Shown here in pieces: positions 16,527 to 53,774 of a DNA stretch of 64,000 bases. Numbering within the stretch: the stretch's first letter is position 1; each line of letters starts with the position of its first letter. The stretch covers positions 10,672 through 74,671 of the forward strand of contig CAZAXH010000007.1 in assembly GCA_964489065.1 (NCBI GenBank). Direction: 5' to 3'. The notes beneath the pieces were generated by a model that saw only the letters and a list, made by a program, of their open reading frames with translations, searched no databases and was not told the DNA's origin. The position numbers and the translations under genes are program-made. This stretch comes from an uncultured Planctomycetales bacterium (GTDB lineage: Bacteria > Omnitrophota > Gorgyraeia > Zapsychrales > JANLHA01).

Positions 16527-16919
16527 TTATCTTCTGGAATGGGTACGCCTGGAAGATGATACCGCCGCGCCGGCTGTCCGTGACGGCTTGTTGCGGAGGG
16601 TCTTTTTATAATCAACAAATTTAATAGCAATCAGGAAAAACACGCCAGCAGCCTTTTTCTCCACCCGGACCACTTGGCCGTATCCTTTAAAAATATCAAG
16701 GATCCCGGACATCACCACGTTAACTTCAATGATGTCATCGACGTGCAAAGGGATATCGGAAAAGAACGCCAGCCCCAGGAAGCTCATATCATGCGTCGTG
16801 GATAAATGCCAGCGTTTATCCGCTTTCCGAATCCGTGTTTTTACGACCCGGAACTGGATGCTCAGAATACGTTTTGCGCGTAAAGCCTGCCTCATTTCGC
16901 CAATAGGCTGTTTAACCAT
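16527..16919 (-). CDS. PilZ domain protein (putative c-di-GMP receptor)
   Basis: RxxxR (LRAKR) and DxSxxG-like (DMSFLG) motifs at the appropriate spacing. About 130 aa. Confidence 0.5.
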   Translation of the reverse strand: MVKQPIGEMRQALRAKRILSIQFRVVKTRIRKADKRWHLSTTHDMSFLGLAFFSDIPLHVDDIIEVNVVMSGILDIFKGYGQVVRVEKKAAGVFFLIAIKFVDYKKTLRNKPSRTAGAAVSSSRRTHSRR

Positions 16920-30311: not shown

Positions 30312-31370
30312 TTAGCTGATACACCGGTTTCGTATGTCCTCGATGAGCGGCAGAATCTCCAGGAAGCGGTCCACAATAATGGGAGAAAAATGGGTTTCTT
30401 TCATATGCCGAATCTCCTCCACCGCCGCGTCAACCGGCCAGGCCTGCTTATACGGCCGGTCCGAGGTTAACGCGTCAAAAACATCACAAATACTGCAGAT
30501 CTGGCCGACCGTAGGGATTTCCTCACCCCGGAGCTGTTTGGGGTATCCGGTCCCGTCCCATTTTTCATGATGCGTAATGCAAATGATCTGCGCCATTTTC
30601 ATAACCGGAGAACTGCTGCCGGCCAAGAGCTTGGCGCCGATGACGGTATGAGTTTTCATGATTTCATATTCTTCCTGCGTCAAGCGGCCCGGTTTCAGCA
30701 GAATGGCGTCAGGAATACCGAGCTTGCCGATATCATGAAGCGGGCTGGCGTGTAACAAAAGGTCGCACTCCGGCAGACTCATCCCCATCGCCACCCCGAA
30801 TTTCTGGCAATACTGGCTCATCCGGATGATGTGCAACCCTGTATCGCTATCGCGAAATTCCGCAGCCTGGGCAAGTCGCCGGATGATGTCCAACTGAGTT
30901 TCCCGCAGTTCTTTCGTCCGCTCCTGGACTCTGCTTTCTAGGATCTTGTTCTGATTTTTGACTTCCATATGCAAACACCGCATTTCAATCATGTTGTGGA
31001 TGCGGAAAATGATTTCCATATTTTCATAAGGCTTATTAAGGAAATCCGTCGCACCGGACTGCAACGCCCGCAAACGGACATCAGAACTTTTCTCCGAAGA
31101 CAGGGCCAGGATGGGAAGATAATGTTCCTTACGGAATTCCGCCAGTTGTTCCATGACCTGAAACCCGTCAAGGTGCGGCATAAATATGTCCAGGACGATG
31201 ATCTCCGGCTGAAAATCCCGGACCAACCCAAGGACTTTCAGGGAATCATTGGTATATTCCACGTTCTTAAATCCTTCTTCAGCGAGGATTTTTTTTAAAT
31301 AGAGCCCGTGAAGTTTCTGGTCATCCACAATCAGGATTCGGGAATGAGCCATTTGTTCTTTTGTGTACAT
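30312..31370 (-). CDS. Response regulator with HD-GYP domain (c-di-GMP phosphodiesterase, RpfG family)
   Basis: N-terminal receiver (ILIVDDQ...VLDIFMP). HD motif (HDIGKLGIPD). HHEKWDGTGYP signature. Confidence 0.85.
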   Translation of the reverse strand: MYTKEQMAHSRILIVDDQKLHGLYLKKILAEEGFKNVEYTNDSLKVLGLVRDFQPEIIVLDIFMPHLDGFQVMEQLAEFRKEHYLPILALSSEKSSDVRLRALQSGATDFLNKPYENMEIIFRIHNMIEMRCLHMEVKNQNKILESRVQERTKELRETQLDIIRRLAQAAEFRDSDTGLHIIRMSQYCQKFGVAMGMSLPECDLLLHASPLHDIGKLGIPDAILLKPGRLTQEEYEIMKTHTVIGAKLLAGSSSPVMKMAQIICITHHEKWDGTGYPKQLRGEEIPTVGQICSICDVFDALTSDRPYKQAWPVDAAVEEIRHMKETHFSPIIVDRFLEILPLIEDIRNRCIS

Positions 31371-50465: not shown

Positions 50466-50555
50466 ACGTCAAGACATTTTCACTAAAAACGCTTCCTTTA
50501 AAAATATCCTTCCCGTCCGGTGGGCAAGCCAGCCAGGTATATGTTATACTTAAGT

Positions 50556-50672
50556 TGACAATTAGAAAGGTAAACTATTCGAAAGAATAGGGCGCAAAGC
50601 CGTGAGCCTAAAGCTTCCTTCTGATAAATAGGGGAATGACATGGTTGTCTGGCTACCGTAACCATCCGGTTC
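50556..50672 (+). promoter_or_regulatory. c-di-GMP-I (GEMM) riboswitch aptamer
   Basis: GGTAAACTATTCGAAAGAATAGGGCGCAAAGCCGTGAGCCTAAAGC aligns to the Vibrio cholerae Vc2 aptamer GGCAAACCAUUCGAAAGAGUGGGACGCAAAGCCUCCGGCCUAAACC. The P1b GAAA tetraloop hairpin, the GCAAAGC motif and CCUAAA are all present. A TTGACA -35-like hexamer lies at 50555. Confidence 0.7.
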
Positions 50673-50685
50673 CGTGAAAACATGA

Positions 50686-50716
50686 GCCCTTCGAATCTTT
50701 CGAAGGGCTTTTTTCT
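50686..50716 (+). terminator. Intrinsic terminator forming the riboswitch expression platform
   Basis: GCCCTTCGAA-TCTT-TCGAAGGGC followed by TTTTTT. It lies 14 nt before the downstream ribosome-binding site. Confidence 0.65.
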
Positions 50717-50729
50717 TAAGGAGTGGGGC

Positions 50730-50993
50730 ATGAAAAACGTCTTATGGATACTGCTGGCCGTGACGATCGTGGCCGCCTGCGGCCTAAAAGCTTTCGCCGC
50801 GACGCCAACATCTTCACAGGAATTTAAAATTTCCGTTTATATCCCGGCCATCCCTGGGGTCAACGCCCCCCTGAATCAAATGACGGATGAAACGAGCAAC
50901 GACACAAAAACCGGGGCATCCTTTTACACCATCACGGAAAAACTCCAGGAGAACGGGCAAACGGTGATCCGGGAAACGATCGTGGCCCGATAG
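50730..50993 (+). CDS. Small secreted protein or lipoprotein (87 aa) under riboswitch control
   Basis: AAGGAGTGGGG ribosome-binding site. Signal peptide with possible lipobox (VAACG). The track ORF starts earlier at 50682, inside the terminator. Confidence 0.5.
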   Translation: MKNVLWILLAVTIVAACGLKAFAATPTSSQEFKISVYIPAIPGVNAPLNQMTDETSNDTKTGASFYTITEKLQENGQTVIRETIVAR

Positions 50994-51017: not shown

Positions 51018-53774
51018 TTATTTTTCTTTAAGCGGGATATTAAACACATACGTGATCCCTTCCCCGACTTTAATTTCATTCCTGATTTTAACAAGCGGAA
51101 TATATTTTATCGGGAGCGAATTGACATCCAGCTCCAAAACATGCGACCCCGGCGTAATATTGTCAAAGCTGTACGTCCCCTCAAAATCACTGTAGGTGAC
51201 GTCCTTCCCGTCCAGGATAATCCTGGCCTTGGAAATAAATTCATCGTCTCTATCTAAAATATTATTTTGATTGACGTCAACGAACACAACGCCATAAACA
51301 CCGGACTGGCTGGTTAAGCCGAAATTATTCACGTGCACTTTTTGGTGGTCCACCAGGACATCTTTCATAAACCCGTCGGAATTGATATACCCGGGCGGCA
51401 AGGTTGAAATGTCCAGGGCGACCCTCACTTTTTGCGCCTTGACGACCGCGTAATAACGGCCCTGGTCATTGGTTTTCACAAGCTTATCGCCGACTTTAAC
51501 CCCGATACCGGGAAGCCCTGCTTCGCCCGGATCAGGCACCGTGTTGCCGTTAGCGTCATTGAAAACCCGGCCCGTAAACCTCCCCGTGGGATTCCAGCGG
51601 AAAAATGTGTCCCAATTGGTCCGCACCCCTAACCGGACATCGGCGTCATTATAAGCCGCATTATCCGGAGCTTCCCTCCAAACGCTGCGGACATTCCCAT
51701 CCATATAGACTTCAAAATCAGCGTTGGGACGATAAACAAACCCCAGAGAGCCGCGGATGGAATCTTCCCCGGACAGAAAGCTAAACTGGCCTGTCGTGTT
51801 CTCTTCGTCCCGGTAGCGCAAGCTCATTCTGCCGGACAGAGGGTCGGTCATCCTCCAGGAATAATCAACTCCTGTGCTAAAAACATGCGGATAGCTCCAA
51901 CGGTCTTCCAGAAGATTCCGGACAAACGAATATTCATAATTCACATAAAACCCTATATTAAAAAACAGCGGCATCCGCAGGCCCGCGGACAAAGAATTGC
52001 GGTCAAATTCGGAAGCTGGAGATTTATCATAACGGTTCTGCTGATAGGTCTGACCGAGCGACAAAGTCATCGCCCGGCCCCATAAAAACGGAAAGCGCTG
52101 GTTAAACATGTTCGAAAGGGTTTTGCTTTCGTGCGGAGAAATAAGCTGGGGGGTATACGACACAAAAGCCCCGCTGGTCCAATTCGAGGCGGAGGACAAA
52201 GGATAATTCAAGGAGCCGTTCCAATCAAAGTTCAGCGCGTCTTCTTTGTCAGGGTTGGATAAAAACCGGTCGCGATAAAAGTCAAGATTCGAATTGACCC
52301 GGGCTTTCTCTCCCCGAAACGCGTAGCGGATATTTCCTCCGACTTCTCCCCTGTCTGAAGGGCGCCCGACCAAAGTCACGTAATCTTTATGGATATCGCG
52401 GAAATTCATATTAAAACTGTAGGCCTTTTTCTTAATCTCCGTCCTCACGATGTCGCTGTAGACATCCTCATCTGACGCTAATTCCCCGTATATTTTAAAA
52501 TCCCGGAATTTGTGTTCGGTCTCCGCGGAAAAAACCTTGTCTTTTAAAAAATTATCCCTCGAGTCGCCATACCCTCTCCCGGCGTTGACCGTGTACGTGT
52601 GATCTCCTTGCGGGAATAACGTCACGCTCGCCCCTTCAATATGGGTTTTTTTGACGCTCATGATCCCGGGGCTCAAAAAGAGAAATTGAGCGCGGTCCTG
52701 CCCCTGAAAGACCGTGTAATGAAGGTTATGATTAAACGCATAACTTTCCAATTTGACGCCCCGAAAACTCCGGCCCGGGATTGATAAATCGGACAAAAAG
52801 ACTTCCGTATCAAACCCCCGGATAATGAAATCCCGGAATGGGCCGATATGCCCGTCGGCCAATCCCATCCGTTCGCCAATCCGCTCCGTGGATTCGGCAT
52901 ACTTATAGAAATTCATAGAGGCGTCAAAATCGCCATACGGCGTCTTCCCGTACGTCCCGACCCACTGGGAAAAATTAAGGCTGGTCCGGGCCATATCCGG
53001 AATACGGTCCCCCAAATAAATTCCACTCCAATTATTTGAATACGCGATATTAAAGGGCGGGGCGTCGGCCTTCCCTGTCAATTCAAATTTTTCCAGCGCT
53101 AAATTCTGCTGAATAACCGGGAGCTGACCCTTCACGTTAAAAGTCCAGCGGCCCCGGTCATCCCAAACATGAAAAAAGGTGGCCCCCCGGACTTTAGTCA
53201 TAAAACTGATGCGGTCCTTGTCCAGCCGGTCCACCTCCAGGACGCCTTCATTGACGGCTAAAAACTGTTTAATATTCCGGCCCTGCAGAACATACGCCTT
53301 ATTGGTTTCTATTTCTAACTCCGTATTGGGCTGCATGGCCCAAAGGACATCATCCAGCTTAAGGATAGCCGCATCCCTAGGTTTAAGCGCCATTTCTCTG
53401 GCCTGCATTATGGCTGACGAAGGGGAAAACTGCTGCGCGATGGTTGTCCGGGCGTCCTTCTCCGATTCCCCGGGGGCCACCATCGCTTCTTGAGGAGGGG
53501 CCGCCGTCTGGACCACGGCCGTGCGGCCCTCTTTAAACCGTTTAATGAGATTAATATACTTAAGAGGAGTGTCTCTTGCCGTATTTATAGACTGGGCTCG
53601 CTCGAAATACGCAATGGCTTTCTCATAGAACCCCTTATCAAAAGCCCGTACGCCCAAACTCATGTAATAATGATAATCAGCGTCCGCCCCTGCCCAGGCG
53701 CCTTGGGGGAAGGCAATAAGAAATAACGCAGCAATAAGAATTCCAAGGAAAAATTTGATCATACCTCGCAACAT
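51018..53774 (-). CDS. Large outer-membrane-associated protein: signal peptide, N-terminal TPR-like segment, central beta-rich region, two C-terminal Cna-B/SdrD-B-like domains
   Basis: Signal peptide. TPR-like segment (YHYYMSLGVRAFDKGFYEKAIAYFERA). Long stretch of alternating aromatic beta-strand pattern. C-terminal repeats (GRVFNDANGNTVPDPGEAGLPGIGV...; GVVFVDVNQNNILDRDDEF...). Confidence 0.55.
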   Translation of the reverse strand: MLRGMIKFFLGILIAALFLIAFPQGAWAGADADYHYYMSLGVRAFDKGFYEKAIAYFERAQSINTARDTPLKYINLIKRFKEGRTAVVQTAAPPQEAMVAPGESEKDARTTIAQQFSPSSAIMQAREMALKPRDAAILKLDDVLWAMQPNTELEIETNKAYVLQGRNIKQFLAVNEGVLEVDRLDKDRISFMTKVRGATFFHVWDDRGRWTFNVKGQLPVIQQNLALEKFELTGKADAPPFNIAYSNNWSGIYLGDRIPDMARTSLNFSQWVGTYGKTPYGDFDASMNFYKYAESTERIGERMGLADGHIGPFRDFIIRGFDTEVFLSDLSIPGRSFRGVKLESYAFNHNLHYTVFQGQDRAQFLFLSPGIMSVKKTHIEGASVTLFPQGDHTYTVNAGRGYGDSRDNFLKDKVFSAETEHKFRDFKIYGELASDEDVYSDIVRTEIKKKAYSFNMNFRDIHKDYVTLVGRPSDRGEVGGNIRYAFRGEKARVNSNLDFYRDRFLSNPDKEDALNFDWNGSLNYPLSSASNWTSGAFVSYTPQLISPHESKTLSNMFNQRFPFLWGRAMTLSLGQTYQQNRYDKSPASEFDRNSLSAGLRMPLFFNIGFYVNYEYSFVRNLLEDRWSYPHVFSTGVDYSWRMTDPLSGRMSLRYRDEENTTGQFSFLSGEDSIRGSLGFVYRPNADFEVYMDGNVRSVWREAPDNAAYNDADVRLGVRTNWDTFFRWNPTGRFTGRVFNDANGNTVPDPGEAGLPGIGVKVGDKLVKTNDQGRYYAVVKAQKVRVALDISTLPPGYINSDGFMKDVLVDHQKVHVNNFGLTSQSGVYGVVFVDVNQNNILDRDDEFISKARIILDGKDVTYSDFEGTYSFDNITPGSHVLELDVNSLPIKYIPLVKIRNEIKVGEGITYVFNIPLKEK

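Follow-up and report, generated by a model that had tools for sequence, protein, structure and literature searches.

c-di-GMP-I (GEMM-I) riboswitches are represented in Rfam by the family RF01051, with Vc2 of Vibrio cholerae as its prototype. The Vc2 aptamer consists of two parallel helices and contains a GAAA tetraloop, a CCUAAA/UAUGG-type receptor, and the bases G20, A47, and C92. A47 is reportedly a ligand contact, a role attributed to Smith et al. 2009. The two guanines of c-di-GMP are recognized through G20 and C92 (PMC6140456). In the OFF switch Cd1, located in the flgB leader of Clostridioides difficile, the aptamer and a downstream terminator coexist, and an antiterminator formed from aptamer sequence is needed for read-through; in the pilM ON switch, the aptamer and terminator folds are mutually exclusive (PMC9262584). 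The GEMM-Ib 3′,3′-cGAMP riboswitches of Geobacter (Gs1761 and pilM) share their fold, Rfam clan, and transcription-terminator platform with the RNA described here. However, they have A at position 20 and a terminator that overlaps the aptamer, which results in ON switching (PMC6140456, PMC9262584), whereas the RNA described here has G20 and a non-overlapping terminator.

This RNA is encoded in a genome of the phylum Omnitrophota, in contrast to Vc2. A cmscan search of the window, i.e., the whole 64-kb stretch of DNA that was analyzed, returned a sole Rfam match, RF01051, at 50559–50660 on the plus strand. The match covers the full model (1–87) with a score of 60.4 bits and an E-value of 2.5e-9 (64 kb × 4227 families). 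The earlier note on this DNA had proposed a c-di-GMP-I riboswitch and had tied the proposal to the gathering score of the family; this score is 35 bits and is clearly exceeded. The strings quoted there were located at 50577–50588 (ATTCGAAAGAAT), 50590–50601 (GGGCGCAAAGCC), and 50606–50612 (GCCTAAA), and the identity to the Vc2 core, put at about 80%, was found to be 35/44 (80%). The P1a hairpin, CUAUUC-GAAA-GAAUAG, spans 50575–50590 (+) and is capped by a GNRA tetraloop at 50581–50584 in the cmscan alignment. The P2 domain (50598–50654, +) contains the tetraloop receptor, in which CCUAAA (50607–50612) faces CAUGG (50640–50644), the latter being replaced by UAUGG in orthologues. At the sequence level, the GAAA tetraloop and its receptor are consistent with the type-1 geometry. 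Alignment to the RF01051 model places the equivalents of G20, A47, and C92 at 50569, 50596, and 50656 (+), respectively.

The window aptamer differs from Vc2 and the RF01051 consensus at four sites. The distal part of P2 is extended by 19 nt, with UUCCUU (50615–50620, +) pairing with GGGGAA (50631–50636), and this stem covaries among close orthologues, e.g., UUCCUGC/GCGGGAA in locus L006 and UUCCUUC/GGGGGAA in L001. Position 22 is U in place of C, giving a U-G pair, and the P1a–P2 junction reads GGC where the consensus is GAC. Finally, the conventional P1 is very weak, and directly 3′ of C92 a hairpin is present instead (CG-U-AACC/GGUU-C-CG, 50657–50674, +, −4.5 kcal/mol), which covaries as AACCU/AGGUU in L056, AACCA/UGGUU in L057, AUUCCAC/GUGGGAU in L042, and CUUUG/CAAAG in both L058 and L059. 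This linker hairpin may serve either as an anti-P1 element or as a 3′-side substitute for P1.

Comparison with related loci provides further support for the aptamer fold. All seven orthologous loci tested scored 61.7–66.1 bits with RF01051. Across 16 aptamers associated with the gene family of the downstream secreted mini-protein, compensatory changes affecting both sides were found at 13 of the 17 aptamer pairs, and these substitutions back both the P1a and P2 helices; the P1a stem, for example, occurs as CUACUU/GAGUAG and CUAUCU/GGAUAG. Among orthologous Omnitrophota loci, the leader hardly varies between the −10 box and the terminator and the flanks diverge, and the identity of the mini-protein falls to 57% among orthologues whose leader barely changes. 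The segment 50559–50660 is therefore almost certainly a functional riboswitch of the c-di-GMP class. It is a further member of a textbook class, and the aptamer itself is no news.

The bases at G20, A47, and C92 point to c-di-GMP as the probable ligand. It is very improbable that the RNA recognizes a different ligand, e.g., 3′,3′-cGAMP, or belongs to the orphan variant class c-di-GMP-I-GGC (RF03167). This variant was reportedly defined by Weinberg et al. 2017 and is not known to have a ligand. For distant relatives that precede genes of the same family, RF03167 is indeed the best-scoring model, with 27 of 33 matches reported under this name at 59–75 bits (gathering score 59), and in a single relative, L059, the G20 position is occupied by A. 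Yet all 33 relatives inspected have A at position 47, whereas the RF03167 consensus has G (GACGCGAAG); since A47 is present in all of them, the RF03167 label reflects their overall shape and not the diagnostic base, at which it was rejected. In the window RNA itself, position 47 is A (CGC-A-AAG) and position 92 is C, and the RNA was assigned to RF01051 under the gathering as well as the E-value settings. The A that marks GEMM-Ib at the Vc2 G20 equivalent is likewise absent, as the window has G at 50569 and A was found among the relatives only in L059. Vc2, a G20 aptamer, has an affinity for cGAMP that is about a million-fold lower than its affinity for c-di-GMP (PMC6140456).

A promoter-like site identified by a consensus scan at 50521–50550 (+) consists of TGGGCA, an 18-nt spacer, and a TG-extended TATACT, from which transcription would start near 50556–50558. 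From TATATGTTATACT onward, eight orthologous leaders share an invariant block, and the sequence upstream of it diverges. Downstream of the aptamer, the terminator-type platform recognized in the earlier note, with its hairpin GCCCTTCGAA/TTCGAAGGGC and T-run, lies at 50684–50714 (+). The terminator scan assigned it a stem at 50684–50710 (GAGCCCUUCGAA/UUCGAAGGGCUU) with 12 pairs, six of them G-C, closed by the 3-nt loop UCU, and a run of six Us at 50709–50714, the first two of which lengthen the stem. With this G+C-rich stem-loop and U-run and a folding energy of −18.1 kcal/mol, the element is a predicted Rho-independent terminator; in orthologues it is unchanged save for one wobble-preserving change. 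The hairpin is palindromic and was also flagged on the minus strand, where CATGTTTTCA follows. As the note had also described, a ribosome-binding site precedes an 87-aa signal-peptide open reading frame: the Shine-Dalgarno sequence AAGGAG (50718–50723, +), conserved in orthologues, is separated by 6 nt from the start codon (ATG, 50730) of this frame, whose stop codon ends at 50993. Aptamer and terminator share no sequence, as 23 nt lie between them, and the expression platform is a separate terminator able to coexist with the folded aptamer.

The aptamer also contains sequences that could act as an antiterminator. On the aptamer side, it is formed by UCGAAAGA (50579–50586, +) and AGGGC (50589–50593), i.e., by parts of the tetraloop hairpin and the junction. 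On the terminator side, it occupies 50686–50703 (+), within the 5′ arm, the loop, and the start of the 3′ arm. In the proposed mechanism, the single-stranded junction AGGGC of the ligand-free RNA would capture GCCCU (50686–50690), at the base of the terminator 5′ arm, as it emerges, after which UCGAAAGA would pair with UCUUUCGA (50696–50703) in the terminator loop and 3′-arm start. The antiterminator would prevent completion of the hairpin, and RNA polymerase would read into the mini-protein gene. With c-di-GMP bound, the tetraloop would be docked on its receptor and the junction locked, so the antiterminator could not nucleate, the terminator would form, and transcription would stop, as in a Cd1-type transcriptional OFF switch. 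In the models, the aptamer and terminator are compatible and the antiterminator excludes both, as OFF logic requires.

The energetics are consistent with this mechanism. The antiterminator duplex has a predicted energy of −18.3 kcal/mol, a value matched in 2 of 2000 mononucleotide shuffles of the terminator region, in 29–38 of 2000 dinucleotide-preserving shuffles, and in 0.6% of genomic 39-mers; the palindrome UUCGAA, which occurs three times in the leader, inflates chance complementarity, and the dinucleotide-shuffle p is ~0.015. When the transcript ends at 50703, the unconstrained minimum-energy fold is the antiterminator. Direct-path barriers were estimated at 4.1 kcal/mol from the apo fold to the antiterminator, 12.6 kcal/mol from the antiterminator to the terminator, and 3.0 kcal/mol for terminator formation with the aptamer kept folded. 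The full-length minimum-energy fold, however, contains the terminator and not the antiterminator (−53.0 vs. −42.0 kcal/mol), and the OFF model thus relies on kinetics. The same holds for Cd1, in which the terminator is likewise the thermodynamic end state and control is kinetic. Two differences from Cd1 are present: the antiterminator of the window would be supplied by the 5′-half tetraloop hairpin and the junction, whereas Cd1 uses the 3′ strand of its aptamer, and the target is a secreted mini-protein and not a flagellar operon. In addition, the polarity is a prediction in the case of the window.

An equivalent duplex was found in five other window-type leaders, with energies of −15.2 to −22.7 kcal/mol that were reached by 0–8 of 2000 shuffles. 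Three of these leaders (L042, L058, and L059) differ in both the P1a stem and the terminator sequence, and in these three the duplex is more stable than the terminator hairpin. The cross-lineage pairing matrix is not cleanly diagonal, as the window aptamer pairs better still with the L042 terminator. In about 28 more distant relatives, the conserved terminator carries in its loop and 3′ arm a sequence, UUGCCUUUA, complementary to the 5′ junction UAAAGGCAA of the aptamer, suggesting the same switch logic as in the window leader. For these relatives, the junction and terminator were aligned by anchoring on the U-run; 75.5% of cells pair, and the register is best at zero slide. Covariation of this pairing is modest: GGC:GCC is replaced by GGU:ACC in two distinct lineages, and 17 of 500 shuffles attain the observed score.

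The leader also offers pairings that could produce the opposite polarity from the same aptamer, although an ON switch operating through such a relay is unlikely. Without ligand, GUAACC 3′ of C92 would pair with GGUUCC, either in the linker hairpin (50657–50674) or in a larger hairpin (50633–50673), leaving GAGCC free and allowing termination. With ligand, GGUUCCGUG (50668–50676) would pair with CAUGAGCC (50681–50688) and cap the base of the terminator, resulting in read-through. The capping hairpin at 50668–50688 does appear, at −6.0 to −6.5 kcal/mol, when the aptamer is forced; all substitutions in the linker preserve pairing via wobble, GGUU(C/U) opposite (G/A)AGCC is kept in L056 and L057, and the linker hairpin covaries, as noted above. 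Surface factors are, moreover, commonly induced by high c-di-GMP, and repression of a putative surface factor under such conditions is not the commonest pattern. Nevertheless, the terminator exceeds the cap in stability by about 12 kcal/mol and keeps its upper 7 bp free to nucleate and displace the cap, and the relay is not exclusive, since the anti-aptamer hairpin and the cap coexist in the local minimum-energy fold of orthologues. For the same reason, the larger hairpin (50633–50673; AUGGUUG/UAACCAU and GGAAU/GUUCC) was rejected as a relay element, as it could not switch alone. All six window-type leaders have the P1a-junction antiterminator, but two of them, L058 and L059, lack the cap. Two further pairings were discarded. 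The full-leader minimum-energy pairing AUUAGAA.GG:CC.UUCUGAU is absent in L005 and L006 and was attributed to lineage-specific chance, and a long-range fold combining AGGGG (50630–50634):CCCUU with CAUG:CAUG was superseded by the stronger, conserved P1a-junction antiterminator.

The anatomy of the leader favors repression by c-di-GMP over induction, a point on which the earlier note was silent. The evidence on polarity is computational throughout, and the calculations leave out tertiary structure and ligand; on this basis, c-di-GMP probably promotes termination. The reading as a whole, namely a c-di-GMP-I aptamer in the leader of a monocistronic mini-protein gene, with a coexisting terminator and an antiterminator that together act as an OFF switch, appears likely with slightly less assurance.

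The product of the controlled gene (50730–50993, +), designated FAM, is an 87-aa mini-protein that is predicted to be secreted. It has a signal peptide of approximately residues 1–23 ending in AFA|A, the motif SSQEFKISVYIPAIPGVNAP, and the C-terminus TVIRETIVAR. Neither the mini-protein nor its relatives matched any Pfam or NCBIfam family above cut-off; an assignment to BhsA was rejected because the NCBIfam match is weak (17 bits against a cut-off of 90). The description of the product as a small secreted protein or lipoprotein was borne out in its first part. The lipoprotein alternative is unlikely, since the Cys of the lipobox-like VAAC is absent or shifted in family members P0002 and P0003 and missing in most of the 20 family members, and the sequence agrees better with an AXA-type signal-peptidase I site. 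The mini-protein is under clear purifying selection, with conservation of the motif and signal peptide, and its AlphaFold2 model is of low confidence (pLDDT 70, pTM 0.27). Its N-terminus contains a strand in which hydrophobic residues alternate, and its C-terminus a β-hairpin. The mini-protein was found in only two GTDB species in a scan of the genome collection, and a riboswitch of the GEMM-I clan lies upstream of genes of its family in about 45 of the 57 loci scanned. In most relatives, the operon also contains a partner open reading frame for a cytoplasmic protein of ~80 aa, which is likewise unannotated and gave no match in Pfam, NCBIfam, or PDB-sequence searches.

The mini-protein gene is closely linked to a gene on the opposite strand (51018–53774, −) encoding a 918-aa outer-membrane protein (p918), which is not part of the riboswitch. 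In the window, the two stop codons are 24 nt apart, and no terminator was detected between the genes. A p918 homologue is convergent to the mini-protein gene in 37 fetched loci, with 27–94% protein identity, and in 38 measurements including the window the median inter-stop gap was 14 nt, the smallest being −4 nt. The AlphaFold2 model of p918 (pLDDT 83) contains a large β-barrel and two Ig-like domains. It was compared with FimD and PapC, ushers of chaperone-usher pili, which are characterized by a 24-strand barrel with a plug and a cognate PapD-like chaperone. Ushers came at or near the top of fold searches, but their TM-scores were low and exceeded those of other barrels by little. There was no Usher Pfam match for p918, no match in a PDB sequence search, and no chaperone family in the neighboring genes; the neighboring 298-, 219-, 460-, and 303-aa proteins had no Pfam match. 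The barrel belongs to an uncharacterized family of 900–1000 aa that is largely specific to Omnitrophota. Its tight linkage to the mini-protein gene in the 37 fetched loci lends indirect support to the idea that the mini-protein is a surface factor.

This arrangement raises the possibility that the main output of the switch is antisense transcription. Since no terminator lies between the two genes, read-through would enter the 3′ end of p918 and could adjust expression of the outer-membrane operon, either through transcriptional interference or through formation of an RNA duplex, with the small open reading frame as a passenger or co-factor; either polarity would be compatible with such an output. 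The conserved convergent layout, the narrow gap between the stop codons, and the palindromic leader terminator, flagged on the minus strand too, all agree with this reading, and c-di-GMP riboswitches are the family most enriched in antisense arrangements (PMC9943018). The layout resembles that of antisense-acting riboswitches and excludon-type overlaps such as the Listeria B12 riboswitch with AspocR: a transcript under riboswitch control would run toward the 3′ end of a convergent gene, and the space between the genes is too short for a terminator. This likeness is hypothetical, and a difference is that the gated transcript also encodes conserved proteins. Purifying selection and the conserved motif and signal peptide indicate that the mini-protein is not a mere passenger, and the tight convergent linkage is equally explicable as a partnership at the protein level. 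Antisense control as the main output is rather doubtful. A convergent toggle is a similarly speculative proposal, in which c-di-GMP would reciprocally switch the mini-protein and a possibly usher-like surface-assembly machine across Omnitrophota, with the mini-protein, in view of its N-terminal strand and C-terminal β-hairpin, perhaps a substrate of the latter. With a median spacing of 14 nt between the stop codons, the gated transcript, which in most relatives encodes the mini-protein and the ~80-aa cytoplasmic protein, would be forced to overlap the 3′ end of the p918-operon mRNA, and the palindromic leader terminator may end the opposing transcript as well.

On a wider scale, the earlier note had taken PilZ and HD-GYP proteins in the window as evidence of a c-di-GMP regulon. 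Both are present, as a PilZ protein at 16530–16919 (−; PF07238, 27.6 bits vs. 22.5) and a REC-HD_5 (HD-GYP-type) protein at 30315–31370 (−). Because they lie ~34 and 20 kb away, respectively, they show only that the organism uses c-di-GMP, provide no specific link to the riboswitch, and do not show that the region forms one regulon.

The interest of the locus is the regulated module and its forced convergent 3′ overlap, not the riboswitch class. The use of the aptamer tetraloop hairpin and junction as an antiterminator strand would be a variation useful for engineering and modeling cyclic-dinucleotide switches, and riboswitch-gated convergent transcription could be tested on the module. The riboswitch marks an unannotated family of secreted mini-proteins as a probable direct c-di-GMP target and thereby gives a functional handle on proteins without a Pfam, NCBIfam, or PDB match. 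Together with its linkage to p918, the mini-protein suggests that this phylum of uncultivated nanobacteria has an envelope or surface module under c-di-GMP control.

The only Rfam match in the whole window is RF01051, the c-di-GMP-I (GEMM) riboswitch class, at 50559–50660 on the forward strand. The earlier note had assigned the RNA to this class and proposed scoring it against RF01051; the scan returned 60.4 bits (E = 2.5e-9) with the full model covered, thus above and not below the gathering score of 35, and the assignment was upheld. The strings quoted in that note are all present where it placed them, and its figure of about 80% identity to the Vc2 core agrees with 35 of 44 identical positions, counted against the Vc2 reference sequence. 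In the cmscan alignment, P1a (CUAUUC-GAAA-GAAUAG) occupies 50575–50590 (+) and P2 50598–50654 (+). P2 bears the tetraloop-receptor motif CCUAAA...CAUGG (UAUGG in the orthologues) and has a distal 19-nt extension, pairing UUCCUU with GGGGAA. One ligand guanine is read by G20 and the other is paired with C92, and position 20 is an A in cGAMP-sensing relatives (PMC6140456). The equivalents of Vc2 G20, A47, and C92 are G50569, A50596, and C50656 (+); therefore, the window RNA has the c-di-GMP signature at its ligand-contact bases, and c-di-GMP is its predicted ligand. It differs from GEMM-Ib RNAs, which have A20, and from GGC-variant RNAs, which have G47. It departs from the consensus at position 22, where U replaces C and gives a U-G pair, and in the junction following P1a, which reads GGC instead of GAC. 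All testable sequence-level features that define RF01051 are present, and ligand binding is predicted.

Close homologues of the 87-aa signal-peptide protein encoded downstream form only three clusters, all from Candidatus Omnitrophota MAGs, and their loci are syntenic. The riboswitch was found in 7 of 7 such loci tested (61.7–66.1 bits). In an alignment of eight leaders, the region from a −10-like box through the terminator is nearly invariant; the upstream spacer and the protein (57–93% identity) diverge across these loci. From the leader, we infer the position of the transcription start site. Compensatory changes on both sides were observed at 13 of 17 predicted pairs among 16 aptamers of the wider gene family. 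Together with the near-invariant leader, this covariation argues that the window riboswitch is functional and under selection.

A metagenome scan for the small-protein family found 44 loci; a GEMM-I-clan riboswitch lies upstream on the same strand in 33 of the 40 scanned, and in 4 of 5 further loci. RF03167 (c-di-GMP-I-GGC) was the label on 27 of the 33 relative matches (fetched loci L014–L055), with 59–75 bits against a gathering score of 59. From a comparison of two Rfam consensus lines, we take "GGC" to mean G20, G47, and C92. All 33 inspected relatives have CGC-A-AAG, i.e., A at position 47, plus G20 and C92. Since the diagnostic G47 is missing in 33 of 33, the RF03167 identity was set aside, and the labelled relatives are regarded from their sequences as ordinary c-di-GMP-type aptamers with a receptor-less shape; the RF03167 model therefore appears to capture canonical-triad aptamers of that shape. 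In locus L059 (1316–1405), the aptamer has an unusual 5′ junction, and its G20 equivalent is an A (UCUUAGUAAAC), as is characteristic of GEMM-Ib RNAs that sense cGAMP. At locus L060 (1200–1350), where the small gene lies 35 nt after a 437-aa ORF, no riboswitch was detected; very frequent as it is, the association is thus not universal. Locus L019 carries a cobalamin riboswitch (RF00174, 92.6 bits) on the opposite strand (963–1141, −), just upstream of the c-di-GMP riboswitch.

The intrinsic terminator claimed to follow the aptamer was recovered by a terminator scan as a 12-pair hairpin at 50684–50710 (+) with a folding energy of −18.1 kcal/mol, followed by a U-run. With the aptamer ending at 50660 and the terminator beginning only at 50684, both can coexist. 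Such coexistence is the architecture of the OFF switch Cd1, in contrast to the ON switch pilM, whose aptamer and terminator exclude each other (PMC9262584). A two-part antiterminator can form in the window RNA: UCGAAAGA (50579–50586, +), made up of the P1a top and the tetraloop, pairs with UCUUUCGA (50696–50703, +), the terminator loop plus the beginning of the 3′ arm, and AGGGC (50589–50593, P1a base and junction) pairs with GCCCU (50686–50690). Among 2000 dinucleotide shuffles, 29–38 match the duplex energy of −18.3 kcal/mol, as do 0.6% of genomic 39-mers; palindromic UUCGAA repeats in the leader raise chance complementarity. For a transcript ending at 50703, the antiterminator is the unconstrained minimum-energy fold, and the terminator fold is favoured only from about 50706 onward. 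By nearest-neighbour energies, which leave out ligand and tertiary contacts, the apo aptamer fold would have to cross an estimated 4.1 kcal/mol on a direct path to reach the antiterminator, and the antiterminator 12.6 kcal/mol to become the terminator; if the aptamer stays folded, the estimated barrier to terminator formation is 3.0 kcal/mol. Equivalent antiterminators in the five other window-type leaders have energies of −15.2 to −22.7 kcal/mol, matched by 0–8 of 2000 shuffles; in this sample of six leaders, the window, L056, and L057 have identical P1a stems and nearly identical terminators. In L042, L058, and L059, both the P1a stem and the terminator sequence differ from those of the window, and the antiterminator is stabler than the terminator hairpin.

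Judging from their sequences, about 28 distant relatives use a different platform with the same switching logic. Their conserved terminator, ACCCUAAAG-loop-CUUUAGGGU6, lies 10–18 nt past the aptamer, whose 5′ junction UAAAGGCAA, including G20–C22, is complementary to the terminator loop and 3′ arm (UUGCCUUUA). For this pairing, 75.5% of cells pair, zero slide is the best register, and two distinct lineages have GGU:ACC in place of GGC:GCC; 17 of 500 shuffles equalled its covariation score. In many distant leaders (L015, L016, L018, L029, L032, L047, L048, L051, and others), the first terminator is followed, still ahead of the first ORF, by another strong hairpin that has its own U-run; UUUGCC, complementary to the aptamer GGCAAA, recurs in the loop or 3′ arm of this hairpin, in what looks like a tandem terminator arrangement.

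The window antiterminator, its recurrence, and the logic of the distant relatives lead us to expect that the ligand promotes termination: bound c-di-GMP would block the antiterminator. OFF polarity, modelled throughout from nearest-neighbour energies of the kind given above, is thus the reading that we consider rather probable. Cd1 bears the closest mechanistic resemblance, although the antiterminator strand is its aptamer 3′ strand and, in the window RNA, the tetraloop hairpin plus junction. The main rival is an ON relay, permitting read-through with c-di-GMP, in which capping of the terminator base by a hairpin at 50668–50688 requires a folded aptamer. However, this cap (−6.5 kcal/mol) is far weaker than the terminator, can coexist with the anti-aptamer hairpin in orthologues, and is missing in L058 and L059. 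Directly 3′ of C92, where the P1 3′ strand is expected, a covarying hairpin is present at 50657–50674 (+), with the stem AACC/GGUU in the window, AACCU/AGGUU in L056, AACCA/UGGUU in L057, AUUCCAC/GUGGGAU in L042, and CUUUG/CAAAG in L058 and L059. Conventional P1 is very weak in the window RNA (about −1 kcal/mol). The covarying hairpin may compete with P1 as an anti-P1 switch element, or take its place on the 3′ side.

The regulated gene was found as described previously, with a Shine-Dalgarno-type AAGGAG at 50718–50723 (+) and an 87-codon ORF from the ATG at 50730 to 50993 (+). A profile search of 1.8 billion representatives delineated a family of about 82–97 aa. Its members carry a signal peptide, and two parts of them are conserved, the segment S-x-x-F-x-I-x-V-x-IPAIPGVN-x-P and a C-terminal strand with K/R at its end; no Pfam, NCBIfam, or PDB family matched. 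The suggestion of a lipoprotein was dropped because the lipobox-like Cys varies within the family. Most distant loci (L014–L053) encode a cytoplasmic ORF of about 80 aa between the riboswitch and the secreted-protein gene (e.g., L029, 2707–2949), with the motif QRVVTFLNRxEVDFLDKLGKDALFSxGxKLSRAKLIAWLVDF and no match in Pfam, NCBIfam, or PDB. The window lineage is without this ORF.

The small gene is followed, with 24 nt between the ends, by the convergent gene of a 918-aa predicted outer-membrane barrel protein (51018–53774, −). In 37 fetched loci (from the set L012–L060), a barrel-gene homologue (27–94% identity) faces the small gene in convergent orientation. The stop-to-stop gap, measured 38 times with the window included, is 14 nt at the median, −4 nt at its smallest, and often 1–5 nt. 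No terminator was detected between the two genes and there is no room for one, so the transcription units, as read from the sequence, must overlap at their 3′ ends. At L058 (1792–2323), a ParE/YoeB-type toxin and Phd/YefM antitoxin pair lies between the two genes, the only locus seen with a broken tail-to-tail junction. The leader terminator is palindromic and was also flagged on the minus strand (50685–50709), followed by CATGTTTTCA; the terminators of relatives have an A-run on the 5′ flank and a U-run on the 3′ flank. Such terminators may therefore be bidirectional, ending the convergent transcript after antisense passage over the small gene. The arrangement suggests riboswitch-gated convergent interference, and c-di-GMP riboswitches have been reported as the most enriched family in antisense arrangements (PMC9943018).

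The PilZ and HD-GYP proteins invoked as part of a regional c-di-GMP regulon are both encoded in the window, but at a distance: a stand-alone 130-aa PilZ protein (16530–16919, −) about 34 kb from the riboswitch and a 352-aa REC-HD_5 (HD-GYP-type) response regulator (30315–31370, −) about 20 kb from it. Their domains confirm the presence of c-di-GMP signalling parts in the organism. A motif search of the window found no GGDEF or EAL proteins, the lone EAL-pattern match being in fact a radical-SAM/B12-binding protein. The aptamer itself belongs to a known class, RF01051. Less ordinary is the regulated module, which combines an unannotated secreted mini-protein family, an unannotated partner of about 80 aa in most relatives, and, in an uncultivated phylum, a conserved near-zero-gap convergent overlap with a giant outer-membrane barrel that is itself uncharacterised.
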